Notes under the pieces: model-generated
What the model was told of the DNA's origin: nothing
Database searches by the model: none
Seen by the model: the letters and a program-made list of their open reading frames with translations, nothing else
Translations under genes and position numbers: made by a program
From: Raillietiella orientalis
Taxonomy: Eukaryota
Direction: 5' to 3'
Length of the DNA stretch: 64,000 nucleotides
NCBI GenBank assembly: GCA_036172245.1
Contig: JAYWIR010000009.1
Coordinates: 1,984,001 to 2,048,000 of the forward strand
Shown: positions 1,401 through 41,473 of the stretch, piece by piece
Layout: each line of letters opens with the position of its first letter
Position numbering within the stretch: the stretch's first letter is position 1

Positions 1401-2911
1401 ACCTGACTCCTTTCACAGTGTTCTTCTGCGGTGGTGTTCCGATACACAAAGGTCCTCTCAGGTGAGGATGCTCTTTTACCACGTGTCCGCATCACCTGCG
1501 TGCGATGGGGATCCCCGTGACATGCCGTTCTTTCTTTGGGTGTGAATGCAACCTCATCTTCGCAGATGAACGAACAGAGCGAAGGACTCTGACACTGAGC
1601 TTCAGTAGGCTTTTGGAGTTGGCCGTCAGCTTCTCTCCCTGGAACCGCTTGCACGGAGTAGGGGGCAGCGGCACTGCTCCATTGCACTTCTGAAGAGTCC
1701 ACTTTGCACTTGCACACTTCGAGCTTATCTCAAGTCTGCCTCACAGCTTCTGAATTACACGACTCCCGGGAATCCTTCCTCAGTGTACCACGATGAAATT
1801 CAACCACGAAGATGCAAACCACCAATTTTCACTGTTGTACTGGCTCCAAAGTGCATCCTCGAGCATCTTAGCTCGTTGGAATCCATATCATTGTATCCAA
1901 TGTCCTTCACACTCAATTCAAGATCGCATGTGGAGGTGTGCTAACTTTCTCACGATGCCTCTCACACTAGCAACATTCCCATAAGATGTTTCCCTATTTT
2001 TCAACTTGATTCTTCCTTTTCAAATCTTGATTGAAATTGAATATAACCTTACGTTATGAAGTCATCACTGGAGCAAGTTTGTTTTATTCTGGCGCGATCT
2101 CGTTCGACCAGTGGATACACTTTTGGCTTCTTTACCCTTTTCACACATGTAGAATCGCTTTGATATCTGAGATGCGCTTTAGCAGAGGTGGGAAAATGCA
2201 GTTTGAGAAACCTGGACACGCAGAAAGGTTCAGGGAAGAAAGAATTTTACACATGCATTCTTTCTCGGACAACAGAACAAAAATAGCTTGATAATAAGAG
2301 ATCTCGTTCGATCCTTAGAGTCCAAGGCACTGAATTACGTTAAACTTCTATATAAAAAACATTGCTTCAAAACCTCTTTCTATAATTTGCCGTATATCTT
2401 CGAACTAGTGCCAATTTGAAATTACAGTATACAGATAAAATATTGGAAACTTCTAGCGTTAAAATACAGAGATGATCTCAAATCAGTCGAATGAACTTAT
2501 CTTCACATCGAAATACAACTGTTGTTTCCTAAATATTCAATGAAGTGTGATCAATCGGTTTTGGTCACCATCAAGATATGCCTGAGTACATATTTCTAGG
2601 CATCAGCTCAAGAGATCAGTTGAGCTTCGGACCTCCAGAAACTTCCGAAGTATCAGCTGTAATCTGTCTAACAAACTTTTACATAACTTATGGGTTACGA
2701 TGTCATAAGTAGAAGAGTAATATATTAAAATAGTGTTCTTAATATACTGCGTAGATTTTCAAAATATTTGGTAAGCAATTTTTTCTTTCAAAATTATTCT
2801 TTCAGAATTTCATCCTCCGAAAGAAATGGTTCTAGTAATAACAAAAGTGTTATGTAAATCTTTAAAAGAAGCAATTTACTGATTACTTAATTCACATGAA
2901 AGCTTGTATGA

Positions 2912-2952
2912 ATTCTCTTATATGAACATATATTATTCTCTTATATGAACAT
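2912..2952 (+). repeat. 18-bp direct repeat pair
   Basis: ATTCTCTTATATGAACAT at 2912-2929 and 2935-2952. Confidence 0.8.
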
Positions 2953-4827
2953 TCTTTTTCTCCAATAATTCCTGTAAACGAAGTCTAGGCAAGCAATTAT
3001 TAATGCGATTCTATGTAGCAGACTTTTTCAGAAGAATCCAGCACTTCCTTGGCCTCAGTTATGTTTCTCAGAATTTTAAAGCGTTCATAGTAAAGTATCT
3101 GGTACTGAATTCATGCTTATCCTTGTCGAAAATTAAAGGTTTCTTTATGAATTTTACCATCCATAAATAAAATGTATTTGTTTTTAATCTCAGTGAGAGA
3201 TCTTAAACAAGAGTTACAAAGTCGAAAATATGTTATCGCATCATTTTTAAAATAAATTCAAAAATACATGAAAGCAATCATGCCGATAAATCCAAGGAAT
3301 AGCTGAAATAAGTAACAATGGTTTGCATGCACTTAATCACTTAATGCTATTGAAACCTTTTCTTTCTGGTTTGAATTCTCAAAAGTTGTGAATGTGACAG
3401 ATAAAGTTTCATTTCAAATTAAAAGAAAGATTTTTTTTCCTATAAATGTGTACTCCGAACAAGAGTATATAAGTGAAGATGATTCTTACGATATATTAAA
3501 ACAATAAATTTTGTAAAGAAACTCATTGTAAATTTTCGTGCTTAGCGTAAGTAGTTTCTAATGAACTGTGCAACCTTGCCGTAAATTCATCACGAAAGCT
3601 TCAAAAAAATACTAAAAAACTGAACCCGGCAACTCAAATTTAAAAGATAGATCACAAACTATTATTGCAAGTCTTTCACCTTGTTTTTTCAGATCAATTA
3701 GTTTGAGCTGGTTAATTGGAAAATTTTACCCAATGTGATCCATCAATTTAATGTTATTTATTGGCAACCATGTTCATGAAATTGATTTCTGCTATTGTGT
3801 TACGCTATCCGTTTGAAATTCGTAATGTGTTTTATTATGTAAATGCAGAAATGTAACTTGTAATTATTTAATTGAGTGGATAAAAACTCAGATGGAAAAA
3901 ATATTTATTATCAAGTGACACAGTTACATTGATATTGTTTTTTAGAGAATCTGATTTCCTCTGGAATAATCAATAGGTAGGTATAATTCTAAAATTCATT
4001 TTATTAGTTTTTAGTACCAATTGGATTGCTTCATTTCAGTAAGTGTATTGTTCTTTTTGTGATTGTTCGTTGTTTTTTGAATATTTGATCACCTATTTTC
4101 CTTTAATTGTTCGAGGTCATTTTGGAAGGGTTTAATGCGGTTAACATACGGTTTCGTGCGGCATGCAGACTTCCGAACTTGAGCCTTTAAAGTGGTTTGT
4201 AATTAACTCTATTTTTTCGAAAGGAGCGAGGTGTAACTGTAATTATTAGATATATAAAGCCTACAATTGCAGTTAGCTAAAGGAAAAAGTGAACTCGAAT
4301 AAGTAATTCTTTTAATTACTCAAAAGTTGATGAGTGGTCAAGATAGCGTGTATGTTTTTCGCTGTTTAGTCAATGTGTGTTGTGAGACTAATTGAAGAGA
4401 CAGTAAGTAGGAAAAAAATGAATATTGATACAGAATCTTGTACCAATTCCCGTCAGTAATTACGCATCCACAGCATCTACCATTTATTCTGTATACAAAT
4501 TTGTCTTGATTGTCAACTAGTGTTTTCTTCAAGGAAATTCTATGTTATGTATGATAAATCATGTGCCATACCGGCACCTGATTTAATGCAGTTTTTATAA
4601 TTTTAATCACATTTTTAGCCCACACACGTACATATTGCGCATTCTTTCCAATGCATTCTGCATTTACTTCACTTTTAAAGCAACCTAATAAAAAAATAGT
4701 GCTGATGCTGGTTTCTAGATTGTCTTCCTTATAAGAAATCGATGATATAGAACACAAATGTACATGTTTATCGTGTTTTGAATAATGTATGGTTACGTTT
4801 ATGTTTTATGAACACATTTCAGTTTCA

Positions 4828-5942
4828 ATGTTCCCTACTAGTGCTGTTTTTTATACCTGGCATTCCTTGATTATCAAGATATGTGCGTTGCTGTTGTTTT
4901 TATTACTTTTGGGGAATTTACCATGTCTGGTAGCAGATCAGCCAAGCCCAGTAGTCTCTAGTATTATTCAGCTTCATGATGGCACTTGGAAGCAGATGTT
5001 AGAAGGAGAATGGATGGTAGAATTGTAATTATTCTCTTTCTTTTTTTTTGAACTGTCTTCAGGCTTATGTCAAAAGGTACTCCTAATTGCAGTTGCTTTG
5101 CAGTTTTGCTGCCTGGTGTCCAGCCTGTAAACACCTTCAACCGATTTGGGAACAGTTTGCAGTCAACTGTTCAGACACGAAAATACGTGTAGCTCAAGTT
5201 GACATCAGTGTGAATATGGGTCTTAGTGGTCGTTTCATGGTTACCTCGCTGCCTACTATCTATCAGTAGGTGGTCCTATCTTGATATGCTATTTATGGTA
5301 CTCAGTGTTCATAATGGCACATTTCGTCTATACCGTGGATCTAGGCTGCTTCCAGAACTTGTTAATTTTGTGCGAAATAATTTATGGCAGGAGATTGAGC
5401 CCATATCTACATGGAAGGCACCCAGCTCACCTATCATGATGGTTGTCAGCTGGTTCTTTGCTTTCTCCATGACATTGAGAGTAAGTCTTCTTCTTTTTTC
5501 TTACATTTCTAGATGTTATCAGAACTATCATGTAACCTTACTGGAAGTTTACAGTCTACCATCCTGGCTTTCTTACCTCATTTTTGGTCTGTTGACTATT
5601 TCATTTGGAGCATTGCTGGGTTTGGTAAGTTTGGATACCTTATCAGTAATGCCTTGTTAACATAAATAATATTTGTATGTAGATTCTCGTTTGTTGTGTT
5701 GAGTATTTCCGTCCACCTATTCCTGTACATTCAGTGGCCTGGAAAGAATCACCTACTGATGATGAGGTAAACTACCCAACCCATTCTTGAATAATTCACT
5801 AACCATGCTGCAGAAAGAGGATGATGCCAATGAGGAGGAGAAAAAGAAGACTAAAAAAAAACAGGACAGCGAACAGGAAACAGAAGAGGGGGTTATTCGC
5901 AGAAGAGGCCTAGGGGGAGGGGAAAAGACACTTAAGGAATAA
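4828..5942 (+). CDS. TMX1: Thioredoxin-related transmembrane protein (TMX1-like); 6 coding exons: 4828-5024, 5104-5265, 5306-5480, 5523-5624, 5683-5766, 5814-5942
   Basis: The spliced translation gives a hydrophobic N-terminal signal, GEWMVEFFAAWCPACKHLQPIW (CPAC active site), AQVDISVNMGLSGRFMVTSLPTIYHVHNGTFRLYRG, a C-terminal TM helix (WLSYLIFGLLTISFGALLGLILV) and an acidic/basic tail. All five introns are GT-AG and keep frame; stop TAA at 5940-5942. The ATG at 4828 is chosen because TTTCAG (4817-4822) precedes it. Confidence 0.92.
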
Positions 5943-5971
5943 ATTGTTCCTTGATACTTCTGTATTTGCAG
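5938..5971 (+). promoter_or_regulatory. Polyadenylation signal overlapping the TMX1 stop codon, followed closely by a 3' splice acceptor upstream of the U2AF1 ATG
   Basis: AATAAA at 5938-5943 contains the TAA stop. A pyrimidine-rich stretch ending TTTGCAG (5965-5971) lies 13 nt before the ATG at 5985. Confidence 0.6.
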
Positions 5972-5984
5972 GTTCACAGACACT

Positions 5985-6978
5985 ATGGCAGAATATTTGG
6001 CATCTATTTTTGGTACTGAGAAGGACAAGTACGTTGTTAGTGTGTGATTATTGTATCTTTATGTCATTCTAGAGTAAACTGCTCTTTTTATTTCAAAATT
6101 GGGGCCTGCAAACACGGTGATAAATGCTCACGTATTCACAACAAACCCACCTTCAGCCAGGTAGGTTCATTTTTTGATGTCAGCATCCAATTGAGGGCCA
6201 TGTTCCACAGACCGTGTTGCTTCAAAACCTCTACATTAACCCACAAAATTCAGCCAAGTCGGCTGATGGTTCGCACAGTAAGTGTGGGTCAGGCCTGCTG
6301 ATGACTGCGGGTCTTCCTTCTAGTTATCACCAACGTTTCTGATGAGGAAATGCAGGAACATTTTGACAATTTTTTTGAAGACGTGTTTGTGGAATGTGAG
6401 GACAAGGTGATGAAAGACATTTAGTCCTGGGGTATAATGGGGAGGGATTCCAGTATGGTGAGATTGAAGAAATGAATGTATGTGACAACCTTGGTGATCA
6501 TCTGGTGGGGAATGTATACATCAAGGTGAGTCAGTTGTTTTAGCAATTGAGAATGGAGACTGTTTGCAGTTTCGTCGTGAAGAGGATGCTGAGAAAGCTG
6601 TAGCAGATCTGAATAATCGCTGGTTTGGGGGACGCCCCATTTATGCTGAACTCAGTCCTGTAACTGATTTTCGAGAAGCATGTTGCCGCCAATATGAGAT
6701 GGGGTGAGTGAGTTTCATTATTGTTTGAGCCTTCTGTGGATAATTTCATGGTTGTTAGGGAGTGTACTCGAGGAGGCTTTTGCAACTTTATGCATTTAAA
6801 ACCCATATCACGTGAGTTGCGCAGGGAACTGTATGGCCGTAGTCGCAACAAACGCAAAAAATCACCATCACCAGTGAATAGGAATGCACGACCTAATAGG
6901 GAACGGAAGAGATCCAGATCTCGAGATCGTAATGATGCTAGGTCAAAGGAAAGGGAAAATCGCATGGGTCGATATTGA
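5985..6978 (+). CDS. U2AF1: Splicing factor U2AF small subunit (U2AF35/U2af38); 7 coding exons: 5985-6028, 6073-6160, 6211-6277, 6324-6406, 6454-6525, 6570-6703, 6759-6978
   Basis: [44 protein letters not shown] (zinc finger 1), a UHM/RRM ([35 protein letters not shown]), [27 protein letters not shown] (zinc finger 2) and an RS-rich tail. Six GT-AG introns of 44-55 nt. The first three exons (44, 88, 67 nt) match the vertebrate U2AF1 exon sizes as I recall them. Confidence 0.97.
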
Positions 6979-9900
6979 TGATTCCATATTTATGGGGACT
7001 AAAGTGGCTGCTGATTGGATGTAGTGCTACAGACTTTTCATTCACTGATCCTACATACCAATTCTGTTATAGGTGTGCATTTATCTTGGCACCCTAAGTC
7101 AAACTATTATCACTGATGTTCTTACAAAAGTTGTACTTTTGAAAAGTCCTCATTGTTTATCTGGACTGAGATGTTAATTCCATACTTCCTGGCTAATACC
7201 TCAAAACATGTCATGAGTCATCCATGTTTTCTAATGTTTATTCAAATGTTTACTTCAAAGTTGTACATTCCAGTCTATTTTCAGATGTGCCTTGTGAACA
7301 TTTGATTTTTGCCATTCATTGACTTTAAACAGATCCTTTGACATAAACCTGAGCATCATTGATGCCAAAGTTGCCTTTGTGCTCATTGTCAGCATGTTGG
7401 TCTTATTTACGTAATTAGAATTAGAATTAATGCGAGCCACGAAGCCTAACAAGCTCTACTTCGTTTTGCTTCATGTTTTTGTGCTCAAAAAGTGCTATGA
7501 ATACAAAAAGATCGCACTTATGCTGATGAGTTTGACTGATATGCTGTAGATGATTTTGGTCATCTTGAAGTTTTTAAGCATTTTAATGAGTACTTAGCAA
7601 CTACGAATATTCAACAAATAATTGTGTGATCTTGATATAAAAGTTTGAAATTCAAGAATTTTAATATGAGTGTAATTACAAAGCATATTACTAAACATGG
7701 AATTAAATGCATCACATAGTTTTATCATTTGAATGAATAATGCTTAGTATTCAGTTCTTTTTATTGATAAAAACAGACTGTTAGATCTGGGATTTGTTTG
7801 GTTGCTGGTTAGACTTGTATTTTGTTTGTATTTCTATGGAAATTCTTTTTGTTTTATGACCAGCTGAATTAAATTTTCCAGCTGCTGTTTCAAACGATTT
7901 TGAATTCAAGTGACTGATGTGAACAGTGCTGGTTTCATTTTTTTTTTCTTTTCCTCTGCTAAAGTGATTCTAATGATGTCAGTGGCTATTTATTATTTCA
8001 CCAAGCTCCCACTAGTTGTTTTGAGTGTTAAGACAAGACCAGCTCTCACACAGATTAATGTGTAATTGTACTACTCTGGTGTTCTCATTATTTTCTGTCA
8101 ATGCTTTTGTGAGCCAAAGCCCTCTGGCCCACACTGTAAATACAAATGTTTCATTGAAGGAGTAAATCTGCATTCTAAAAGATGTACTTAGATTGTAATT
8201 ATTAACAAAAAAGTGGTGTCCGTAAGCTAAATGTTTGATGGATTCTTCCTTTTCAGCTTGCCCCACTCATTTAGTTCTGTGCATTTGGACAATCTAAGAC
8301 ATTAGTCATTACATGGCCACTTTTCTGTAACACCAGGTTATGATTAGGTTATGGTGTTTTGGGTTTTCTTTGAAATATGTGTAAATTCTCGTTTTGGCAT
8401 ACCATTGTGGGTGCAATTTTCGGAAGGCTGTCGCATTTGTTACTTTCAGATTGGTTGGAACAAACATTTAATGAAACTATTCAAAAGCTTTCATTGCATT
8501 GTGGATATGTGTTTTGACTTTTACAGTATCACATTTAAGTGCAGGTTTTCCTCAACTATTTGTTGTAATTTAGGGAAACCTAATAGTACGATGGTACATA
8601 ATTTGGCCTGCTTCATTGGTGCATAAAGGTACATGCATAATGGCTGCCTTGGACTATATTTTTGCAGTCCGATTATGTGTTCGCAGCCAGTGCTTTAGGT
8701 AAAGTACGTCGTCGGAATTGAACTTTTGTTGTGATTCCTTTTTGTAACTAGTCAAGCTTTTCATGCAAAGTACCAAAAAAGGCATCCACAAAATCATCGT
8801 CTAAGAGACTGCCTTCAAGTCGTATTTTCAGTTGATTTCCCCATGCCTTCAAAAGTGAGCCATTAAAAAATTACGCCGTTTTGCTTTTCGTATTTTTGTG
8901 CCGTTCTGTTCCTCCAAGATTCAGTTTTCTTAATGAACCGCCTCCAACTAGACATAGCATATCGATGAACTTAATGTCTTCCATAAAAAGTTTGTACAGT
9001 TTGTTTTAGGACCACTTTACCGGACTTACCGAAAATTGTTCCGAGAACTTAAAAACTCAGTTGATACGTTCAAATTGTTAAGTTTTTGGATGATCTGCAT
9101 TTGATTTGAGTTTGAGGTGGCCAATCAATTTTCACAACTCAATATATACGTAAAAAGGGAATACTTTGAATTGTTAGGAACTTTCATCTGGTTTAGCTGT
9201 CATTCGTTTTTGTTATTTTTCATTATTCTTGAATACAAGGCTATTCTATATCAACATTTTAGGTTATCTTTCAGTTATTAAGAAGAAATGCCTTTTAATT
9301 TTGCAATTGCCGTTTTATCAGAAGGAATTCAATCTATTTGGATCTAATATTCAGTTTATGATCAGAATGCTGAATTTTCTTACAAAATTCAGAAAGGAAA
9401 TGTTTGCCACCTGTGAAATTTGAAATCACATACTTTACTTAAACATACTAACAAACGATTCTCTTCGTCATTACAACATTGAATTACAGCAACCATTCAG
9501 CTATAAAATTAATTCCTTCAGCTCATTAGCAGAGTTAGCCACCGTTATACACTGATAAATTTAGAAAGAGTTGAATTTATTCTTCAAATTCAATGAAGCG
9601 ATGCATTTGAGGAAACAATCGAAAATGCATTCAATTTTTCGTTAAATTTTTTGCAAGGAAGAAAATTAGGATTCAAACATTTCAGAAAAATCAGGGTAGA
9701 AATTGCAGATATCCAGCGAGAATACTGAAGCCAGAGAGGGAGGAAAAAAAATTATACTTCACATCAACTGAAGGTTTTAAGCTTCAGTTTCTTATAAAAT
9801 GCAGCATCCAAATACGTGACTTCACATGCATTTCATTTTGGTTTGCAATGTTACCTTTTACATAACGCCCCAAATTTCGTTTCATAGACTGACCCATAAT

Positions 9901-10817
9901 TCAGGAGATACTTATAGAGTAAATTGTTCAATGTAAACTGAATCAAGACAGAATATGGAAAAAAACAAAAATGTTTTGGCATTCTGTCTTTGTGTGGAGA
10001 TGTACAGAAAACCAGGACTTTGAGGAAATAAATCAAGCACTTATGCATAAATGGAAGATAATTAAACGAAAGCGTACGAAATACACGGGAGGTATTAATA
10101 TGCAACTTACATTCCAAGCATTAGTGCTTCAGAACTTAAGAAAAAAAAAAAAAATTGTTTCTTTAACGAAGTCTAAATTGGTCTGCAAAGTGTTCCAGCT
10201 AAAGCTCTGGATTAGAATCTTTCATGATATCATGTTGAACAATCGAATAAAATATATACTGATGTAACTTTCTCTCAAAGGCTTCAAGTGTTCTATGGGT
10301 GTTTAGCTCAAAACTCGTCGATCTCGAAGAGTTTTGAGATTTCCACAGTTCCACAAAAGTTTGCATTTCTAGGAGTCATGGTTGATACAGTTCATTGAAC
10401 TGCCTTGATAATGGGAAACCAACTTATGGTTTCCAGATTTTCGCGGTAATATACTCATATAAAAAATGCAAATCTTTGGAAACTATTTATGATTATTTTG
10501 ATTCACATATATTAAGCAAACTCATTTTCAAAAAGGTTCTATACTTTGGCGGAATCATTGGAAAAATGATAAGAAATAGCTTGTGAAAGACTTAAGAGTA
10601 CAAATTACATTGATGAAACCTAGAGAAATAGAATACTCATTCTCCCAAAGAAAATATAAAACCCTTGTCAGTGTGCTTTAAGACCAGTTGATAGGCGAAT
10701 ACAATCAAAACAATAATACAATGCAACAGACGTCGATTAGCCAACTGAGCACTGTCTGATTTTCCATTGTGTGACACGAACACAAGCATCATCCAGAATT
10801 TATGGTTGCGAGTTAAG

Positions 10818-10884
10818 CAGAATTCCTGCAAAGATTCCGTTCAGAATCTCCGTTTCCATCATTCAGAATTCCTGCAAAGATTCC
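10818..10884 (+). repeat. 21-bp direct repeat pair
   Basis: CAGAATTCCTGCAAAGATTCC at 10818-10838 and 10864-10884. Confidence 0.85.
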
Positions 10885-11974
10885 AGCAAGTCCATTCATA
10901 GATCACGTAAGTGACCAGACTTGCTGCTTGCATTCATGGGCTCCGTTCCAAATCAAAAGTTGAAACGATAAGCTATCTAGTTTTCCAGACATCTTGCATA
11001 CTATAAATCTTGAACAGTTTTGAATACAGTAAATTACAAGGAATTCTAAGTGCTTTTGGATACAATAGTTTATTTCAATTCTTGACGGATCGAATGTTAA
11101 GGATACTTCATTATGATGGCTTCTTTTATTGGATATTGCTTTTATTACTTAGACTCTGTGAAATGATTAAATGATTGGAGTCTAGTTATTCTTATCTCTA
11201 CTGTTGTGATCATTTAGGTCCATTGCATCGTTTTGGTCTCGGTATGTTACCACGCTCTCTGGAGTTCCCTAAACTCCACGTATGTTGTGTTGTCAAAAGG
11301 CAAGACAACACAAATTTCACGTGTTTTTATGGAAATTTATGCAAACGTGAAACCATTGATGCTTTCCACGAGTAGCATTGCATGCCTGCCTGGACTGATG
11401 GCCTCAACGTGCCGAACATGCGGTGTGCTGTATGCAATGACCTTCGAAGACCAAAGTTGATTGTGAAGAAATCTAGTAAAAAGTATCCAAAGAAATATAT
11501 TTGTGATTTAAAAAAAAATAAATCATTATTCCAGATACGAGTTCTTTTGCTTGTGGATCGCAAGTCTGCTACATTAAAAAACGAATCCATTATTTGTAAT
11601 TTCTGCGTTATAGTGCATCAGGTTTAAGCATTTTAGGAGTCAAAGTAGTGAAATACTTCAGGGAATTTTCAGCATTCGATCGCAAAGTGAAGTTACGTTT
11701 TTGTCGAGATCTGAATTGAAATCAGCCACAGAGGCTCCATGCGACTTCCTATTTGCATTTTCTTGGTGCCATCGCTTTAGTTTCTGAAGAACTTTAACAT
11801 TTCTAATGGAAATATGTGCTCATATCTGGAAAATCCACGACTCAATCTATGACAAAAGCCTCTTCATTATGATTAAAAAGACTAATCAGCCTTAAACTCA
11901 AAGAAGGTTCATTTAAGTCAGTTGAATTCTGATCTGATTGTTCTGTTGATTAGAATATCAACCATTGGTTTACA

Positions 11975-13146
11975 ATGAATGATGCAAACTTCTGGTGGTC
12001 CCTCTTGGTATGAATGTAAATTGTGCCAGAACTTCAAGTTCAGTCAATTGTTTTAGGCTGGTGGTGTAGCTGGATCTGTAGTTGATCTTTCATTGTTTCC
12101 TTTGGATACCATCAAAACCAGACTTCAAAGTGGCAAAGGTTTTTTTGCATCAGGAGGATTTAAGGGAATTTATTCAGGAATTTCTCCTACTCTTTTAGGT
12201 TCAGCACCTGGTGGTAAGTTTTATCAGGAACTCTTAACTTATTTTTTTTCTTAACTAAGTAAACACTTGAATGTGCTATTAGCTGTAAACTCCCATTAAT
12301 TGTGAAAATAAAACATTAAATTGGAAGCAATAATTCATATTCATCATTAACATTGCCTCATGGTTTCAGCTGCCATTTTTTTTTGCACATATGATGCATT
12401 CAAGAGATTGTTCGAATTTCAAATTTCAAATACTAAACAGTACTTAACACACATGTTAGCTGCATCAATTGGGGAAGTGGTAATTGAGATTTCTAAGTAT
12501 TCCATTGCAATTGTACAGAATGCTTGTTTTGTCAGAGTTCCAGTTGAAGTAATAAAGCAACGGAAACAAGTATACAGACATATGAAAATAGCAACAATTG
12601 TAAAGAATACATGGATAGAAGAAGGTGTCGCTGGATTTTATAGAGGCTATTGTATTACTATCTGTAGAGAGATTCCATTCTCTCTTATTCAGTTTCCACT
12701 TTGGGAAGCTCTATTGACATTTCGCCAGTACCAAACTAAAAAAACTATATCATCTTGGGAAGCTGCAATCTGTGGAGCAGTGGCAGGTGCTTATTTCAAG
12801 ATGCATACAGTAATAATTGTTTCATATTTACTAGGAGGTGTAGCTGCTGGATTAACCACACCTTTAGATGTAGCTAAAACAAGGAAGATGTTGGCAGGCT
12901 CAGGAAGCACATTTGCTATTGGTTCTTTAGTTCATGTGTTGAGATTATTAGTAGCTGAGAATGGATTACATAGGTAATCAGCTGCTTATAGACTGCATCA
13001 TTAATATTGCAGTTAGTTTATTTTCAGGAATTGTGCCTCGTGTTTGCTGGATGTCTATAGGTGGATTCATCTTTCTAGGCTCCTATACCCAGGCACAGCA
13101 TTTCCTTGATTCATACCTTAAAACAAAAAGTCAGTATCCAGAATAG
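11975..13146 (+). CDS. SLC25A26: Mitochondrial S-adenosylmethionine carrier; 6 coding exons: 11975-12007, 12057-12213, 12370-12479, 12519-12786, 12835-12973, 13017-13146
   Basis: Three mitochondrial-carrier signatures ([35 protein letters not shown]) plus SAM-carrier-type segments [33 protein letters not shown] and [27 protein letters not shown] introns keep frame; stop TAG ends at 13146. Confidence 0.93.
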
Positions 13147-14275
13147 CCCTGGCATGTTCAATACATTTATTCTGAACAGGGTTCCGTTTTTTTTCCGTAT
13201 TCTTTTGGTACACAAAAAAGTAAAAAATTGAAAAACCTTCAACACACATTAGAACCTTATTTTACATTCCAACTGCTTTATATTCATATGATTCACTGGA
13301 GATTCAGCCAACTTTATGGTGAATTCTTGCAGCATGCTTTAAGTTTTTATGTTTTAAGATGTAGCATTAACCACTCTAGGTTCTTATATACCCTAACAGT
13401 AGTACGAATGTATTAGTATAAGTGAATCAAACTGAAAGCTGATGCATTAGTCATTCCTCACCAAGTCATTCCCATCTGCCAACTGGTTTGGTAAACCAGT
13501 CTTTTCATATCAACATATTTCTTTGTCATGAAATACTTTTTTTCGTCAATATTTCATTTCTTAACACAGCTCTTTCAGGAAGTCTCATTTCCAAAGTTTG
13601 GTGCATCCTTACATTCTTGTGCGTGACAGTTTTGCGTTTCGTGGTTTTCTGAATGAATACAAAAATTTCGAGAGTGCCCGATAAATTAATTTAGATCAAA
13701 ACTATATCTGCAAACACGGAAAGTTTTCTGTGCGCGCCTTGAATTGTTTTAAATGTCTTGTGATCCGTATACCTCAGAATGCATCCATACCTTACCACGC
13801 AGGAATCCATGATTACACTTAGGAATTCAATAAAAATTTTTATCAAAATTCCTCCCCCCATTCTAGCACAAAAGTTTCACATGCGAGTGATATTTGCAAA
13901 TTAAGTAATTTATTATTATTATTGCTCCCATAATAATAATCCATTTCAACTAACAGATGCAATAAATGTGCATTTCGTTTCTGTTTTTTTCAATGTGATT
14001 ATATGCTTCTCAGGGAACGCATGCTATATGTTACGCTGATGGTCGGTCTTCAAAAGTGATTACACTTTAACCGTAGGTGTGTTTCTGCAGTGAAAAAACT
14101 GAACCTCACAGTTTGTTTAGTTATCGTCCTCCATCGTGAATGAGTGCTCCGAGGATCGGACCTGTGAAAAGTGAAAGTGAAATGCTTAAACAAACAAAAC
14201 TGAGGTTTTCTCTGCTCCTTTTGCATTTCACCGAGTGCTGCATAGGAAAGGGAGGAATGCCTCGTTTGCCTCTGG

Positions 14276-14612
14276 AAACGCAGCCAAAACAATACCAAGT
14301 TTTTCAAATCCAAATTCCTCCAGCCCATTTCTTATGTATTGAAAGGGACCACTAAATATCTGCTGCTGGCCTTCTGTTCTGAACGCTAAAGCCACTTCAG
14401 CGAATTTTGCTGACACACCAAAAAAGTCCATGATCACCATCCAAGGTACCACTCCTGGTCCTCTTATAGAAACTGCAGTTGCAACACCAGCAACAGTTCC
14501 AAGACCTACCTCCCTTGAAAGTGCAGTCACAAATACCTGAAAATGTGGCCATCGTGATGATTTGTGCCATATTTTTCCACACAGAGTAGCAAACGCATGC
14601 TTAAACATCCTC
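14276..14612 (-). pseudogene. Bacterial sodium:alanine symporter (AgcS family) N-terminal fragment (Rickettsiales/Wolbachia-like nuclear insert)
   Basis: HFQVFVTALSREVGLGTVAGVATAVSIRGPGVVPWMVIMDFFGVSAKFAEVALAF..FSGPFQYIRNGL matches the AgcS signature FQAxxTALxxxVGxGNIAGVAxAIxxGGPGAxFWM...KFAExxLA...GGPxYYIxxGL. Confidence 0.85.
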
Positions 14613-14779
14613 AGATGTTCAACACATGCCTTTGCTGATGCTGCTAAAACAGGAGATATGGCGGTGGTAAAAAAAATAAACCCTGAAGCGGAACTTCTTA
14701 TTACATCTACTAAGCTTTTTGAAGACGCTATATCTCCACCCATCACTCCAAAAGTCTTTGATAATGTGCCTTGAATAAA
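14613..14779 (-). pseudogene. hemA: Bacterial 5-aminolevulinate synthase fragment (Rickettsiales/Wolbachia-like nuclear insert)
   Basis: The minus strand reads FIQGTLSKTFGVMGGDIASSKSLVDVIRSSASGFIFFTTAISPVLAASAKACVEHL. This is the ALAS PLP-lysine motif (GTLxKAFGxxGGYIA) followed by the IRS..GFIFTT motif. No introns. Confidence 0.8.
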
Positions 14780-14799
14780 CGCACTCCAGCGTTCCTAAA

Positions 14800-17540: not shown

Positions 17541-18189
17541 GGGCACGCAAACGTAACCGGCGGCGAGTGTTCGTCAAGAAAACAGTCCACCGCGCCTGAG
17601 CCGTTGAGCACTGGCGCAGGCAGGCTCACAAGTCCAAGCGCCTGCCACCAACCATGCTCAAAAAGGCGGTGGCCATCTTGTCCTTCCAGGAAGTTGCTGA
17701 TAGCCAATTCTGAATGCCTGTGAAGATCAGGGGAAGGAAGGTAGACGACTCCGTTGGCAAAGGCCTTTAATGCTTGGCGTTTGCAGATCGAGCGAGGACA
17801 AGGATGGAACGATGGTGGGCAACGCGCAGACATCGAGCGGAGAGGTCAGGCTCCTCGCTACACCCGTAAGGCTCATGACTACGAATACGCCGGACACAGA
17901 ACTTCAAGATGAACATCGTGCGACTGCGTTGGCTCGACGTCGTTATCGTTTCGTTTTGCTCTGTGTTCCTAATCTCCTCTCTTTTTCGTTCCGTGACATT
18001 GGCGGCTCTTGTATGTTGATCCCGGTACATATGAAGCGAACCCAAAGACCCGAAATGCCTCTTTTTTTTGTTGTCCCCCTCCACTATCCTGTTTTGCATG
18101 TCAGTGGATCTCCCACTGAGCTTCTTAAGTATTCAAATGGAAACTGGTTCCCAATTTGTTTATTTTATAAAATGGCAATCCAAGGTAAC

Positions 18190-18540
18190 AGAGTTTTGTG
18201 ATGCAAGGCAGGTAGCCAACAGGAAGTTATCTGTTGTATTTTGTACACGACAGTTTTGATTGCAAGACATGGGTGGAGCCACGTAACATGAAGGGCATGC
18301 GTGATGTATTCCACAAGGCGAGTTTAGCTGGAACAAGGTATACATTTGGGCCTCTGGAGCGCACCTTCAGTGCAGCAAGGAATGAGGTACACTGTCAAGT
18401 CTCATTAGGTCATAAATACTGTAAGCGAAGAATTGCCTTTCCTCGAGAACCCGATACCTGGATTTGTGCCTGGTTATAAGGATTTGGGAAAACGGCAGTG
18501 CGCTTTCAAACGAAGGAGCAGTGCTTTTACAGAACGCTTG
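18190..18540 (+). pseudogene. Possible decayed tandem Kunitz-type (BPTI) domain pair; mirrored at ~48555-48905 (-)
   Basis: EFC..EPTGSYLLYFVHDSFDCKT...GTRYTFGPLER and HCQVSLGHKYC.RRIAF..EPDTWICAWL*GFGKTAVRFQTKEQC resemble Kunitz spacing (TGxC..YF.FD; G.N.F.T.EQC), with several cysteines lost. Confidence 0.3.
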
Positions 18541-20619
18541 GCGCGAGGGGTATGTCGATGTATATTCGAACGCCATGCAAGAAGGCGAGACGCTCCGGAG
18601 AAGGTTACGAGATTAAAAAACTGAGATGCCCATGGACGGATGCGGACGATCAGCGGAAGAAGAAGATAATAAATGCTTACGCCGTGAGGCATAGAAGCGG
18701 TTTCGAAATATCTGATAGTTGATTTCCAAACGTGCAGGGACATCGAATGGATCTGTAGAAAACAAAAATAATAACAACTATTTGACATGTGCCCCGCCGT
18801 TTGTAATTCTTATTTTCAAGTATATAGAGGCATAAGTGATTAGCAATAAATTGATTTGTCGACTCGATCGTCCGGCATATCAGGAAGGGAGGTGATGGTT
18901 TGTTTCCAATGGTGGATTATGGCGCCGATCCGTGTCCCAGTTTGCAGAGACGACGACATGGATTGTGTTGAAAAACTTGGTGCAACTGGCTGGGATCAAG
19001 TACCGCTCTCGGGTTGGGCTTACCTCAGCATCTTCAAGTCTTAAGATGATTTCAGGAGCTTCGGATGCTGGAATAACCAGCTCTCTTTTTTTAAAAAAAA
19101 AACTGGGAAGGATGCTGTAATTTCATGGAAATTTTGATTCTGACCTACGCCTACTTTCCCCATATCCAGTGTGCATGCAGAGCCACTCTTTCTAAAACCA
19201 TCACTCCCACTGTTAAAGGGTCAAACGCATGCTGTCTGGTAATCACATCAGCAGAGTCACAAACTGCGTTACCATCTTCATCTTTGTAGACGACTGCATT
19301 TGAACACAAGCCTGCTGGAAAGAGTCTCCTAGCCAGCAGCTTGCAAAGTGGCGACTCCAGAATGGCTACAGTTATCAGGAATCTATTGCAAAGTCACCCA
19401 GAAGCCAATTTTGTGCCTTGTTCAGCAACGTGCCATCAAAGATTTCACTGTTTTGCTGAGAACTGGATGAATTGCACCAGGAAGCGGCACGTTCCACCTA
19501 ATGACGCATCGAAAAGTGCGCACGAAGATGCGCAATCCCTAATCAGCTTCCAAAACCAACGGAGTCAAATCAGAGATCGAACCTGTCGGTTCGTCTCCTT
19601 AGGAATATCGCAGTGGCTCTATCCATAAACCCCTCGATCTGAAGATGCGCGCGCGCCTTCAGCCGCAAGTCCGGCACCCGGGAACCACTCATCAGCAAAA
19701 TTGGCAATACACTGGCTTCCAACGCAGTCGAAGGCAGGAAAAACAGGAGCAAGGTGTTCATGTATCACCCATCCATCAATATGCATCCATCCGCATCTTC
19801 TCCATACGGATATGTGCACTTTTATTTTGTTTGAGCTTCCGGGATTCTTTATCTCGGCGCTGGCGACTTTCAAACCAGTCCTCATGGACGAAGTGGATCG
19901 ATTTGCCACGCAAGTCAGAGAAGAAATCCATTCAACCATTGCTGGGACAGAAAGCGTACCAACGAGATTGAGGACAGCAACCGCCAGACAACTGCGAGCG
20001 AATCGTCAAATCTCGAGAGACCTTTCGCGTAAGAAATCGCAAGTGTCACGTAAGAAGAATCCGGAACGTACATTCCAGCCGGCATGACGAGAACGCGTAC
20101 GGGGACAAATCGCTGAACAACTTCCTGATCGAGGCAAGGAAAATGCGCCACCCTGGTAGCAGTCATTCCGCCTCATCCGGAAATCACTGCGATTCGTCGA
20201 CCATCGTTTCATCCGGCGGGATGGCGCGTGTCGCAGATGTGGACAGTGCAATGAGACGCCTCTTCACTTGGCAAACCACAGCGCGACCGCCTTCGTCCAC
20301 TACGCTGCCGATCACGGTGCGGTAACTCTTCCGTGTAACTTTTGGGTTATTCTAAATGAGTTTGTAGCTTTTCGCGATTGTTTCCTTAGTTTTGTTTAAA
20401 AGTGTGTTGTCACAAAATCTGTATGTACACGCGGTCTTTCCACAGTTGTGGTCGTACAAGGGTGACACAGAACCTGACGGTCTGATGGTCTGTTCTGAAT
20501 TATTCCATTACTTGAATGTTTAAAGAATAACAATGTCGACATAATTAAATCTATTCAATTCTATCACAAACTATCCTTGCTGCATTCTCTTATATTCGCG
20601 CACTACATGAGCCATGATG

Positions 20620-23600
20620 ATTCCTCAGAAGCCCGCTCGCGGTACGGCACGCCTGAATGCCCCTTCCCCTTTCAACTCGCTATTGTCTTCTCCACCCAAT
20701 TTATCCCCAACTGCCTGCCCCCTTTTCCCTCAAGGAAAGGGTTTCCTTTGTTTGCCTCTCCGGGAAAAAGTGTCTCCCAGAAGGAGAAGGGCTGCCTTCG
20801 GGCAATGGCGGCTCCTTAGATAAACTGGGCACTCTTCTCGTCGTTCTCTGGCAGAATCAGGGCTGCCAAATACCGATACATATATCTGCCTCCATACCGG
20901 CTTTGATGGACAGCGCTGATCTATGCCGGTGGAGGAACATGACATCCCTGAATGCGCTGATGCCCGCTTGTGGGTTCCCCTCCCTACTCCGCTGCCTCTG
21001 ATGTGCCCTCTGTATGGATGCCATGGGTGCTCGGTGGCCTCGACCCCAGCGGAACGCAGACGCAACATGAAGCGCCATCTAGTTCGAACTCATGACATCA
21101 GTGTGACTGGAATGGCGACATTCTGCGGGACCTGCCGATCCCCTATACCTCATCCTGCACCCACGGTACACGTTTGCAGGAAAAAAGCGATCCCATTATC
21201 CGCCGCGGTTCGCATGCTGAAGTTCAGGTGCCCCCGTTGCCCCAACCGCTTCCACGAAAGAGGCTTACTGAAGAGGCATGTGCGCATCGTGCACAAGGAG
21301 CAGAATAACCTCTCCTTTGACTGTGCTGACGAACAAGCCTGGATACCACTGTCGGACCCTGTGCCTGGTGCCTCCCCTTCCTCGGTGACAGCTTTCGGCG
21401 CCAGGAGCGATGACGATCATTTAATCACCAGCCTGGCGCAACTCGGGCCTTCCCCAAGCGTGTCGAACAGTTCCGTCCTTACCGTCGCTTCCCCCTCACA
21501 AACTGACATTGCTGCCCTGTCTGACGCGGCGGATGTGCTCTTGGGAGCCGGTGAATTCGGGAGCACTGCAACAGTGGCGTGTTCCGGGAGGAGCGCAATA
21601 AGACTCTGATGGTGAATACCACGAGACGGTGCTTGCCGATAGTGCAGGAACCCACGACCCTTGACGACTCTAGCCAACACGTCGTCTCTTCCGTGCCCTC
21701 CCTCGAATAGCTGACGAGCTGGGTGTCGGACCTCGGGATTAACGTACCACCGAGTGCACCCCCAGTCTCCAAATCTTACATCCGTGAGGTTTCCCTGAGG
21801 CTTGCTTCCCCAAGTGACACTTTCCCCCACCCGGAGCCGCCGGTCGTGCCCATCGATGGAGAAGCTTTCAGCCCTAACCATCCCTACCGACGCCCATCGA
21901 ACCGGCCCCGCCACAACCGAATACACCGGATGTTTCTCTTCTTGGCCACGATGCGCTTCAGGTGCTTTTTCCCATGCCAAAGTACATACACTGCATTGAA
22001 GAGGGATGAGGCTGGGAATCCACAACGGCGTACGGGAGCCGTACCCTACAATCGCTCGATCGCCACTTGAAGCACGTCCCCAAGCTGGCCATTAAAAGGC
22101 ACTCCTTGGCGTGTCGTCGTTGCCTCCTTCCGGTGACCGTGCCCACGCATCTCCATAGATGTGTAAAGATAGCTCCAGAAGCCACCGAACCGAACACCTC
22201 CTGGGCCCAGTTCCTACAGCCACACTGCTCGCTCGCCTTCCCCAACGAGAAGGGGTTACAGAACCACCTGAGATGGCATCAAATGGTGAAACGCTCGCTC
22301 CAACGTTCACGCCCCACATCAGTGCTGGCTCTTCCCCCAGTGAAGGATCCCCCCCCGTTCCGACTATCCCACTAGCGAACAGATTCGAACGACTTGGCCA
22401 ACTCCCGCCTACGGAGCATACCCCTCGATCCTATGAGTGGGCGATTGGGAAGGATGGAGTACTCACCAGGCAGTGAACCTCGGCCTCCGCCTGTGGCATC
22501 CGCTTACCCTCATCGGCGCTCGTTTGCTCGCGGAAAAGCGCCTTCTCAGCCACAATGTCGACGGAGGAAGCATTACCTTACCCCAACCTCTCGACCACAT
22601 GCCATGGCCCCGTCCCTACGACAGACATTTTTCGGCAGAAAAGCCATGCGCTTACCCAATGTTCACCTATCACGAGCGCTTGACGACGTTGTGCAGCTGC
22701 AGCCGAGCCTTGACACATGGAAGAGGACGTTGCTGGCTCTCCAAGAGTATCGTCGACGCGTCCAGAGCACTGTTTCTGAACCCCACAAGAAGGGTCGGGG
22801 GGTTGCACGCACCGCACTTCCACAGAGGAATACACCTGGGAGGGCCCGCCTTCAACTTGTATACAGGACTTAACGGAGGCGAGCAATAAGGGAAATCCTT
22901 GGACATCACCACGGTCGGTGCACTGTCGACTCTGCGGGTATGCACGCATACCTCAGTGACATCCACTCTCCGAAGCACATGGACAGCTCCCAACTGGACA
23001 GAGCCCCGCCCCCCCCAATCGAACCCTTGGACCTCCAACCACTCCTCCCTGACGAAATCCTTGAATGTCTTGCGAAGTGCGAGGGAACACTGCCCCTGGT
23101 GAGGACCGCATTGCATACGCCACACTCCTAAGGGATGATCCTCAGGCAGCCGTCTTGACACGGCTATATGGTGCCTGCCTGACCCATCGCCGATTCCCTA
23201 AGGAATGGAAAGACAGCTTTTCCATCCTCATCCCGAAGAAACAATACCCGCGAAAAGATCTCCTTAGCGACTTCCGCCCCATCGCGATTGGCAACACGAT
23301 GGGGAAAGTGCTTGCCAAGTGCTTGGCGAAGAGACTTCGGGACTGGAACATGAGCAGTGGCGTGATCGGTCTTCGGCAGAAGGGCTTCCTCCCCTTCGAT
23401 GGGGTACCGGAGAGCAATTTCACCCTCTCTACCCTCAATGACGAAGCCCGCATGCAACGGAAGCCGCTGTGCATTGCCTGGGTTGATTTGAAAGATGCGT
23501 CCTCCTTCCTCCCCCATGACTATCTACTTGCATCTCTTTTTCACGCAAGGCTGGTTCATCACTTCACCGATCTTATCCGCGACCTTTACGATGGATCTGT

Positions 23601-25620
23601 GACCACCTTTGGAGGGACGACTGATGCAACAGAACCGGTGGCGATCCGAGCAGGTGTTCTACAGGGCCGTTCTTCAGCGGCCTCCTGTTCAACCTAGCGT
23701 TGGAACCCATCCTGTCTCCCCTCTCTGACCGGTGCCCAGACTGCATCTGTCTCGCATACGCGGACGACGTAGCGCTCGTCTGTGAGTCCCCTCAATCCCT
23801 CCAAAGTGCTCTGGATGTGCTTTATTGCGCGTCGGCGAAAGGTCGGTTGCGAATCAACCCAAGAAATGTGCTTCCTACCACTTGGTGCATCAGCGCCTGG
23901 CTGGCACTCTGCCCACGACCTTTCGGGTGTGCAACGTCCCCATTCCCGTAGTGGAGGATTCCGATGTCTACTCTTACCTGGGAAAGCCCTTGGCTTGTGT
24001 GCCCTCGAATCGGATGCCGGGAAAACACATATACTTGACTCCCTCCTGAGACTGATGGACTCCTTCCTGACCCACTTTCAAAAACTAGATGCTCTTAAGG
24101 TTTTCTTCTTCCCTGCCTTCACGCACTCCCTCCGGCTAGGGCATAAACCCTTGGCCTTCTGAAAGTCGTTGGACAAGAAGGTGAAGGACATAGTGAAAAC
24201 ACAAATCCTATCCCTGCCCCAGTCCACCTTCTTGGAGTGTCTATATACGGCCTCCATGTACGGAGGCATAGGTTGCTTGCTGCTCCAGGAGTAGAGCACG
24301 ATCATGATATTGGACTCAGCATTCAAGTTTCTGACGAGCCCGGACCACATGGTCGCGCAACTGGCCCTCCCCTCTCTAAGTTACGTCGTCTTTCTTCCCG
24401 GAGATCAAAGTTCTCCCCGCACCAACCTGCTCCTCTAGCGCTACCTCAATGGGGACTGCGATTCGCCACTCAACATTCCCTGCGGTATTCCCCGTAGCAT
24501 CTGGCCCCCAGTCCGGAGCGCCTCCAAGAATCTTCCTGTCACCTGGATGTTACAGGATGACGGCGTGGAACTGATCATGGACGGTAGGAGGATCTCCATG
24601 TACCAGAGGCGTCAAGTTGCTCGCAGCCTCCGCAACGCCAGAAGGGACGACAGACTTGTCTCCCCCCTGCAAAAGCCCAGCCGGGGAAGAATCATGGACT
24701 GTGTGTGCTTCTATCCTGCGTTCAATGGCTTTCTGCAACGATGTGAATCTTTGCGGTTCTCCTATTGGAGGTTCATCCATGGTGCCCGCCTTAACCTCCT
24801 CCCCCTTAACGGGCATATGAGGCGTGCGGGCTTCCTCGAGCGTTGCCGCAGGTGCACGTGACCCAATGAAACTCTGTGTCACGTAATCTGCCACTGTCGC
24901 TACCACCTGGGCTCCCTTATCACGGGGCGCTACGACGCGGTCCTCTCCCTGTTCCTAGATGCCGCACGGGAACGTTGACCCTGTGTTATGAGTGACCAAC
25001 AGGTCGAAGATTCCAACTCCTCCCTCAGGGCCGACCTGCTCGCCCGGGATGACCAGCGCGTGGTGATCATCGACGTCTGCATCCGTTTTGAAAACCGACG
25101 GGAAGCACTCCGCCATGCGCGGGCTGAGAAAACCAAAAAATATGCCCTGCTTGCCGAATCCTTTAAGACCAAGGGCTTCGCTGTTTACGTGGATGCAATT
25201 GTGGTGGGTTCCCTGGGATCCTGGGACCCCAAAAATGACGTGGCGATCGCCCGCCTCAGCATCCCGGGTACGGTGGCGACAACTCAGAGGCAGGCGGCAA
25301 ACGCCTCCACGATAAAACGGTCAAGGGATATCTACTCCCGCCACATCGAGCGCCAAAAGCCCTCCGGTTTCTCTACCCCGACGGAAGCCCATAGTGAACC
25401 TGATGCTCCCGAATCCGGTCCGCAGCTTTCTGCCCCGAAACCTCCGCAAGATCTCCAGCCTGCAAAGCCTGCACTAAAACAACGTTCCCCCTGGGAGACA
25501 CTTACGGTCCACCCACCACGTGAAGAAACCCCGCCGTTACAGCTGAGGTAGCGGAAAGCATGCGACTTCATATTCTGCTTCCATGGACCTCACCCACCCA
25601 CGCATTGATGCCAGAGCCTC
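20620..25620 (+). mobile_element. Near full-length, inactivated RLE-type non-LTR retrotransposon (Utopia/NeSL-like)
   Basis: N-terminal zinc fingers (CPLYGC..KRHLVRTH; FRCPRCPNRF..LKRHVRIVH; CSLAFPNEKGLQNHLRWH); RT motifs APGEDRI, LIPKK, DFRPIAIGNTMGK, QKGF, AWVDLKDA, GVLQG, LAYADD, YLGK; WRFIHGARLNLLPLNG; CRRC..ETLCHVICHC; RLE RADLL..VVIIDVCIRFEN..EKTKKY..IVVGSLGSWDP. Multiple frameshifts and stops. Confidence 0.9.
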
Positions 25621-26089
25621 AATCAGCTGATTGAAGAGATTAAGCCTTAGCGATTCAATTCACGAGCCGCCGCAAATACCGTTAGCCCTATTGATGCCTC
25701 TAGCAGAGGAAACGATGTAAATCCAGAAAGCGATAAAGACTATATCCTCGAAGTGAGTCGGCACATTCGCCCAATTTGCCGGAGGCAAGCCCACTGCAAG
25801 GGTGCTTCCAACGCTGCAGGAGCATCCTCCATTCCTGCCGCCTCTTTCCATCCTGCAACCGCTCCGCAGCAGGGCACGTCCCTACAGCCCAACCAGTTGG
25901 CAGCCTGAGGGGAAAACCACACCGATTCTCGGAGGTATTAGCAACCCACGGCCTCGAATGTCGACCCCACCCCCGGACCCACGCGCACCTCTCACCTCTC
26001 AACGTAGCATTCACCGCATTCATCTCCGCAACTTCAAGACAAATCCGCAGCTTCCACGGAGGCGAAATTTCCGTGCGAGTTTTCGATTT

Positions 26090-41005: not shown

Positions 41006-41473
41006 AATCGAAAACTCGCACGGAAATTTCGCCTCCGTGGAAGCTGCGGATTTGTCTTGAAGTTGCGGAGATGAATGCGGTGAATGCTACGTTGAGAGGT
41101 GAGAGGTGCGCGTGGGTCCGGGGGTGGGGTCGACATTCGAGGCCGTGGGTTGCTAATACCTCCGAGAATCGGTGTGGTTTTCCCCTCAGGCTGCCAACTG
41201 GTTGGGCTGTAGGGACGTGCCCTGCTGCGGAGCGGTTGCAGGATGGAAAGAGGCGGCAGGAATGGAGGATGCTCCTGCAGCGTTGGAAGCACCCTTGCAG
41301 TGGGCTTGCCTCCGGCAAATTGGGCGAATGTGCCGACTCACTTCGAGGATATAGTCTTTATCGCTTTCTGGATTTACATCGTTTCCTCTGCTAGAGGCAT
41401 CAATAGGGCTAACGGTATTTGCGGCGGCTCGTGAATTGAATCGCTAAGGCTTAATCTCTTCAATCAGCTGATT

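Follow-up and report, generated by a model that had tools for sequence, protein, structure and literature searches.

In a 64,000-nt window of genomic DNA (contig JAYWIR010000009.1, positions 1,984,001 to 2,048,000 of the forward strand; coordinates below count from the first base of this window), a TMX1-like gene is followed on the same strand by the gene for U2AF35, the small subunit of the splicing factor U2AF, with 42 nt between the two coding regions. Both are housekeeping genes of a kind ordinary in animals. We propose that the pair may be a two-gene operon without intercistronic region, whose RNA would be resolved by spliced-leader trans-splicing, and we give this reading a probability of about 0.42. 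The broader idea that TMX1 and U2AF35 are co-transcribed, with processing at an AG of the gap, is plausible, and has been somewhat strengthened by the analysis reported here.

The gap between TMX1 and U2AF35

The pair was pointed out in an earlier note on this DNA, whose coordinates all proved exact: TMX1 ends at 5942, the U2AF35 ATG stands at 5985, and the gap (5943-5984, + strand, 17 T out of 42 nt) lies between them. Equally exact were the overlap of an AATAAA hexamer (5938-5943, +), presumably the poly(A) signal of TMX1, with the TMX1 stop codon (TAA, 5940-5942), and the position of an acceptor-like TTTGCAG (5965-5971), whose first base is 22 nt past the last base of AATAAA. A second acceptor-like site, TTCACAG, comes in addition to those of the note and scores higher. 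Together they form a tandem pair (5965-5979, +), with AGs at 5970-5971 and 5978-5979; from these AGs to the U2AF35 ATG there are 13 and 5 nt, respectively. In the gap acceptor, pyrimidines make up 9 of the 12 bases ahead of GCAG, as read directly from the sequence, and a branch-like TTGAT (5951-5955, +, with its A at 5954) is placed 17 and 25 nt upstream of the two AGs. The distance from the end of AAUAAA to AG 5970-5971 is 27 nt, which is a usual distance for cleavage past this hexamer, and only 11 nt separate the hexamer from A5954. With the branch region of the gap acceptor overlapping that of the TMX1 poly(A) signal, competition on one precursor between cleavage and splicing at the AG would result from this layout. 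An in-frame fusion of TMX1 to U2AF35 through the gap acceptors was considered and rejected, because positions 5972 and 5980 precede the ATG by 13 and 5 nt, and neither number is divisible by 3.

Acceptor-like sites were scored with a position weight matrix (PWM) trained on the 16 introns modelled in the window, thresholds being set after the data had been seen. Scores of 6.3 and 8.9 were obtained for AG 5971 and AG 5979, and 5.7 for the site ahead of TMX1 (see below); the 16 real acceptors, scored in a leave-one-out manner, spanned -4.2 to 10.8 around a median of about 3.3. Within the AT-rich island that contains the genes (roughly 1,800-14,400), sites scoring at least 6.3 occur at 0.0037 per nt per strand, which corresponds to a chance of about 14% of meeting one in a 42-nt gap; for a site scoring at least 8.9 this chance falls to about 5%. 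A branch-like YTRAY motif at 11-33 nt was present in 8 of the 16 real introns.

The + strand of the 12-kb island has 12 copies of AATAAA, so that a stop codon would have one no further than 10 nt away in about 2% of cases. Past the stops of U2AF35 and of the third gene modelled in the island, which encodes a mitochondrial carrier, AATAAA is met only after about 700 nt or more: the next one after the carrier gene is at 13,829, and downstream of the U2AF35 stop the first AATAAA comes at 10,027 and the first ATTAAA at 7,702. A hexamer at the TMX1 stop and none near the other two suggests that a 3′ untranslated region of about 25 nt or shorter is peculiar to TMX1.

Finally, an acceptor-like site (score of at least 5.7) precedes the start codon of each of the three modelled genes by no more than 21 nt: 5 nt for TMX1, 5 or 13 nt for U2AF35 and 21 nt for the carrier gene. 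The same criterion is satisfied by 6-7% of random non-genic positions, and by 49 of the 532 ATG triplets of the island. Such acceptor-like sites at three start codons out of three are suggestive of a genome in which trans-splicing is common.

Identity of the two genes

The TMX1-like gene (4828-5942, +) gave a complete GT-AG model of 6 exons (4828-5024, 5104-5265, 5306-5480, 5523-5624, 5683-5766 and 5814-5942) separated by introns of 79, 40, 42, 58 and 47 nt, and encoding 282 aa. Exon 2 carries the thioredoxin domain (Pfam Thioredoxin, 2.8e-11), and the top single-domain match in the PDB was 1x5e, human “Thioredoxin domain containing protein 1” (6.7e-16), or TXNDC1, which we take to be TMX1. 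The N-terminus is hydrophobic, and is followed by a CPAC site, presumably diagnostic of TMX1, by a single hydrophobic stretch and by a charged Lys/Glu tail. The predicted protein thus appears to combine a signal sequence, one thioredoxin domain with C-P-A-C, one transmembrane helix and a charged tail, as expected of a TMX1 family member. A search against longer proteins returned a 272-aa relative (P0001) of similar layout, 41% identical over TMX1 exons 3-4.

Just upstream of TMX1, the acceptor-like TTTCAG (4817-4822, +, AG 4821-4822, PWM 5.7) is where it had been reported. Whether it stands just before the start codon, as was also claimed, depends on the ATG that is chosen: it is 5 nt before the ATG at 4828, and two further in-frame ATGs, at 4789 and 4801, are found upstream of 4828 after a stop at 4783-4785. 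TTTCAG moreover overlaps TCAGTT (4819-4824), the arthropod initiator consensus, and the segment 4817-4824 may serve either as an acceptor, for trans- or cis-splicing, or as a transcription start of the initiator-like kind. In the island (counted here from 2000 to 14000), TCAGTT is present 13 times on the + strand and 6 times on the - strand, for about 4 per strand estimated from composition, with one copy at 11918, 57 nt before the ATG of the carrier gene. Two copies of ATCGAT are also present in the island, one of them 90 nt before the TMX1 ATG. Both words may be core-promoter elements.

U2AF35 (5985-6978, +) was likewise modelled completely with GT-AG introns, of 44-55 nt, its 7 exons (5985-6028, 6073-6160, 6211-6277, 6324-6406, 6454-6525, 6570-6703 and 6759-6978) encoding 235 aa. 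The 44 aa of exon 6 matched the PDB entries of Schizosaccharomyces pombe U2AF23 (1.2e-17) and human U2AF35 (4.2e-12). Single-exon Pfam matches to zf-CCCH and RRM_1 were weak, just under the curated cut-offs; the spliced model has a C-x8-C-x5-C-x3-H motif near the N-terminus, a C-x7-C-x5-C-x3-H motif after the RRM-like part, and a basic Arg-Ser tail. Similarity to solved structures, two predicted CCCH fingers, an RRM-like domain and an Arg/Ser tail together point to a U2AF small subunit.

Metagenome contigs were scanned with the last U2AF35 exon, and 80 of 197 confirmed loci were retained, none of which belongs to a close relative. The spliced model is up to 92% identical to these loci over the matched stretches, and its exon ends (residues 15, 44, 66, 94, 118 and 163) coincide with the ends of the aligned segments in many unrelated loci. 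This indicates that the intron positions of U2AF35 are widely shared, and that the gene is not a retrocopy. One metagenomic locus (L007) has tandem duplicate exons for residues 44-66 (2900-2965 / 3876-3938) and 67-94 (4397-4471 / 4846-4929); these pairs are reminiscent of vertebrate U2AF1, for which duplicated alternative exons have been described.

A possible common pre-mRNA

If the two genes form an operon, a single promoter upstream of TMX1 would give rise to a pre-mRNA running through both. The 3′ end of the TMX1 mRNA would be made by cleavage and polyadenylation about 10-30 nt past AAUAAA, at or just ahead of the acceptor, and the U2AF35 mRNA would acquire its capped 5′ end from a spliced leader, trans-spliced at AG 5970-5971 or 5978-5979, which would leave a stretch of 13 or 5 nt ahead of the AUG. 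Cleavage of TMX1 and leader addition would use overlapping RNA, and would probably compete on each precursor. The splicing of human U2AF1 responds to its own product, according to PMC5224494, which makes a feedback of the U2AF35 protein on its own acceptor conceivable here, as a speculation.

The idea that one pre-mRNA serves both genes, as had been proposed, fits the geometry of the pair, the rarity of AATAAA, the quality of the acceptor with its branch motif, the pattern found at three start codons out of three, and the low gene density of the region; these observations do not choose between trans-splicing, a shared 5′ exon and an internal promoter. Concerning gene density, all three modelled short-intron genes are inside the island of about 12 kb; stop-to-stop open reading frames (ORFs) of at least 38 aa contain no Pfam family at 1,800-4,800 or 7,000-10,200, and downstream of U2AF35 the next modelled gene begins at 11,975. 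Tight packing of TMX1 and U2AF35 within so sparse a neighbourhood favours a functional link between them over general compaction.

Several observations weigh against the operon. A spliced-leader RNA gene was sought with Rfam, and no match was obtained at gathering scores in the 64-kb window, nor at E≤1 in the island, it being understood that Rfam covers described families only and that a leader gene need not lie within these 64 kb. No TMX1-like neighbour was detected by tblastn in any of the 80 metagenomic U2AF35 loci, only 8 of which have at least 900 nt upstream; as none of them comes from a close relative, all that follows is that TMX1 and U2AF35 are not widely paired. The acceptor PWM rests on just 16 sites with post hoc thresholds, the putative acceptor of TMX1 doubles as the initiator-like TCAGTT, and the TMX1 start codon is ambiguous. 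To our knowledge, trans-splicing is absent from most arthropods other than copepods and amphipods. The copepod leader sequences of PMC4664967 were found in calanoid, and possibly siphonostomatoid, data sets, and in no cyclopoid or harpacticoid one, and PMC7986045 states that, as of 2021, operons were not reported in copepods, amphipods or rotifers. Lastly, the 155 nt that precede the U2AF35 ATG are devoid of ATG (P of about 0.05 by local composition), which fits an unspliced leader starting inside TMX1.

Alternative explanations

This last point leads to the best of the rival explanations, a promoter of its own for U2AF35, which we consider somewhat unlikely. Transcription of U2AF35 would start in the last TMX1 exon or intron, or in the gap, and the AGs of the gap would remain unused; the unspliced leader would measure up to about 150 nt, TMX1 would use its own poly(A) signal, and the two transcripts would overlap by tens of bases. 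The earlier note held that there is no room for an intergenic promoter. This is correct for the 42-nt gap, but it does not extend to the last TMX1 exons, where the ATG-free stretch fits one. The A-rich run 5861-5869 and the AATAAAT at the TMX1 stop could act as weak TATA-like elements; no initiator-like TCAGTT is present near 5985. The U2AF35 start codon is in a good context (A at -3, G at +4). In the metagenomic set, 11 cDNA-like U2AF35 contigs extend 29-277 nt before the ATG without any upstream gene, which suggests that ordinary U2AF35 mRNAs have plain leaders; no common leader was evident among these 11 contigs. Trans-splicing would also be unexpected if the animal is an arthropod outside the copepods and amphipods. 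However, an independent promoter leaves unexplained why two genes should be crowded together amid kilobases of empty flanks, and it would be traversed by TMX1 transcription. It also leaves to chance the strong acceptor, the branch motif and the occurrence of acceptor-like sites at three start codons out of three.

In two unrelated metagenomic loci, the U2AF35 start is preceded, at distances of 37 and 47 nt, by the ends of upstream frames of 100 aa (L072, 3765-4067) and 136 aa (L061, 477-887). Neither frame is TMX1-like.

One pre-mRNA could also be resolved without any leader RNA, if an upstream non-coding exon were spliced in cis either to 4823, giving TMX1, or to 5972 or 5980, giving U2AF35. 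This needs no spliced-leader machinery, and would be possible in any lineage; it also makes use of the acceptor-like sites found ahead of both start codons. Three donor-like sites, at GT 3977, 4039 and 4403 (region 3977-4410, +), with donor PWM scores of 10.0, 8.9 and 8.3, lie 430-850 nt upstream of TMX1 and are candidates for the end of such a 5′ exon, as their scores exceed, equal or approach the 99th percentile for all GTs of the island (8.9). Nevertheless, neither an exon nor a promoter could be defined upstream, and several ATGs occur just ahead of the 4403 site. The introns required would measure 420 to about 1,900 nt, whereas 15 of the 16 modelled introns measure 39-79 nt (the last one is 156 nt long). 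Moreover, among the candidate acceptors that of TMX1 scores lowest, and it lacks a branch-like motif. A shared or nested 5′ exon is distinctly unlikely in our view.

We regard as highly improbable that both frames are read from one mature dicistronic mRNA, of the kind known from some insect gene pairs, with U2AF35 translated by re-initiation or internal entry. A same-strand gap of just 42 nt and the remoteness of a poly(A) hexamer after U2AF35 would suit this arrangement, but re-initiation past an AUG-rich upstream frame of 282 codons would be inefficient for an essential and abundant splicing factor, and neither the AATAAA placed exactly at the TMX1 stop nor the strong acceptor of the gap would be accounted for.

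It is scarcely credible, lastly, that one gene is a dead copy or that the junction is misassembled: the window has its oddities (a 10-kb inverted repeat, a chimeric bacterial-type ORF and, in the carrier gene, a frame that may be off by 1 nt, all described below), but both frames are complete, 11 of 11 introns are GT-AG, the U2AF35 product is highly conserved with intact zinc-finger spacing, and the window contains no N.

The carrier gene and the surrounding DNA

The third gene of the island (11975-13146, +) encodes an SLC25A26-like mitochondrial S-adenosylmethionine carrier. Its acceptor-like site, TTGATTAG (+), ends at 11953, 21 nt before the ATG. The GT-AG intron modelled at 12974-13027 leaves the last exon one base out of frame, which reflects either a non-canonical boundary moved by one base or a 1-nt assembly error. 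Two introns of this gene (12480-12518, 39 nt, and 12787-12834, 48 nt), as well as the TMX1 intron 5481-5522 (42 nt), have a length divisible by three and no in-frame stop, and their retention would add only 13-16 residues.

The carrier protein is 49-56% identical to those of 37 named animals from nine groups. The top four named matches (Folsomia, Artemia, Neocloeon and Orchesella) are all pancrustacean, and a few metagenomic proteins reach 57-58% identity. The median identity between phyla in this set is 56%, and the protein consequently carries little signal. A tree was made from the 37 named sequences and 13 of the 14 top-ranked further matches, among 120 listed. It grouped the carrier with a bdelloid rotifer, a result that we distrust given the long branches and a branching that was not resolved. 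The host genome had been described as arthropod-like; the best named carrier matches do give a weak pancrustacean lean, and this description is weakly supported at best. It is very unlikely that all the elements proposed for this locus hold together, namely a pancrustacean or arthropod-like host from a lineage without any described operon, a Ciona- or SL1-type operon of independent origin, TMX1 polyadenylation and leader addition competing over 30 nt, and U2AF35 setting the ratio of the two and thereby its own level.

The composition of the window is strongly mosaic, with sharp steps between GC classes. The AT-rich island (about 1,800-14,400) has 26-45% GC, measured in 300-nt bins, and the DNA on both sides of it (1-1800 and 14400-64000) has 50-68%. 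Almost no Pfam-recognisable ORFs were found in this flanking DNA, apart from reverse-transcriptase ORFs, and it contains a near-perfect inverted repeat. The arms of this giant repeat (18173-28587 and 38508-48921, about 10.4 kb each) are 98-100% complementary, broken into 5 segments and separated by a spacer of 9.9 kb. Each arm contains CT/AG-rich low-complexity DNA and a reverse-transcriptase ORF (23065-23694, with the mirror copy in the other arm). The repeat is a true palindrome or else a fold-back artefact of the assembly. For a reverse-transcriptase ORF of the window, the top match was 42% identical.

At the edge of the island, in a single open frame (14231-14794, -), a fragment resembling 5-aminolevulinate synthase is joined to the N-terminal portion of AgcS, a bacterial-type sodium:alanine symporter (Pfam Na_Ala_symp, 1e-20). 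The top solved matches of the first fragment are short forms of 401-403 aa, which we take to be bacterial, and the ORF looks like a scrap of bacterial-type DNA, arrived by transfer or contamination. Two isolated and weak Pfam matches, to a C-terminal piece of the beta2-adaptin appendage (10202-10375, -, 6e-05) and to a piece of the CAP N-terminal domain (53968-54417, +, 2.9e-06), are possibly gene relics, the rest of each gene being unrecognisable.

Discussion

Known operons offer several parallels to the arrangement of TMX1 and U2AF35. PMC7986045 gives a median intercistronic distance of 1 bp for the operons of Ciona and 31-33 bp for those of Oikopleura. In Ciona intestinalis and Oikopleura dioica, as in our pair, the genes are on the same strand and the 3′ end of the upstream gene abuts the acceptor of the downstream one; these animals, according to the same source, have a single leader and mostly dicistronic operons, whereas for TMX1-U2AF35 a leader and a polycistronic RNA are proposed. 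Unlike in Oikopleura, the genome around the pair is not compact. U2AF35 moreover keeps the widely shared intron positions, which is atypical for Oikopleura.

The SL1-type operons of Caenorhabditis elegans, which have no intercistronic region (Williams et al. 1999, as cited in PMC9258526), resemble the present pair in that the upstream poly(A) site adjoins the downstream trans-splice site. They are a rare class, in a phylum with a dedicated SL2 system. The two processing events are expected to compete in operons of this type. Unlike those of nematodes, the acceptors found here are not of the strong UUUUCAG type, and we have no indication of a nematode.

The C. elegans orthologue of U2AF35, uaf-2, had been put forward as a member of such a no-spacer SL1-type operon with cyp-13. 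The literature searched gave no confirmation of this arrangement; the title of a 1999 paper by Zorio and Blumenthal names cyp-13 as a partner of uaf-2. That uaf-2 is an operon gene did find confirmation: according to PMC2762039, one operon serves for the expression of uaf-2, sfa-1 and three further genes. A U2AF small-subunit gene is placed downstream in an operon there, as is proposed here, but its partners do not include TMX1, and any resemblance would be convergent.

The cholinergic VAChT/ChAT locus, with its nested, shared 5′ exon, and the dicistronic genes of insects are parallels for the rival explanations, since they yield two proteins from one promoter region without trans-splicing. 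No shared exon was identified at TMX1-U2AF35, unlike at VAChT/ChAT, and, in contrast to TMX1, the first stop of a dicistronic gene lacks a poly(A) signal.

Among the matches listed for the literature after PMC7986045, none deals with mRNA operons in arthropods. If the pair is indeed an operon resolved by trans-splicing, it would be a further case of a known type of arrangement, and we see in it a reasonable lead. Its import would depend on the animal: in a phylum with known operons the pair would be routine, but in an arthropod no operon-type arrangement would have been reported before it, and it would be a real surprise. In the event that the operon is real, the factor that reads the 3′ splice-site AG would be encoded by a gene that itself depends on an AG placed atop its neighbour's poly(A) signal, and the locus would provide a compact natural system for the competition between cleavage and trans-splicing.

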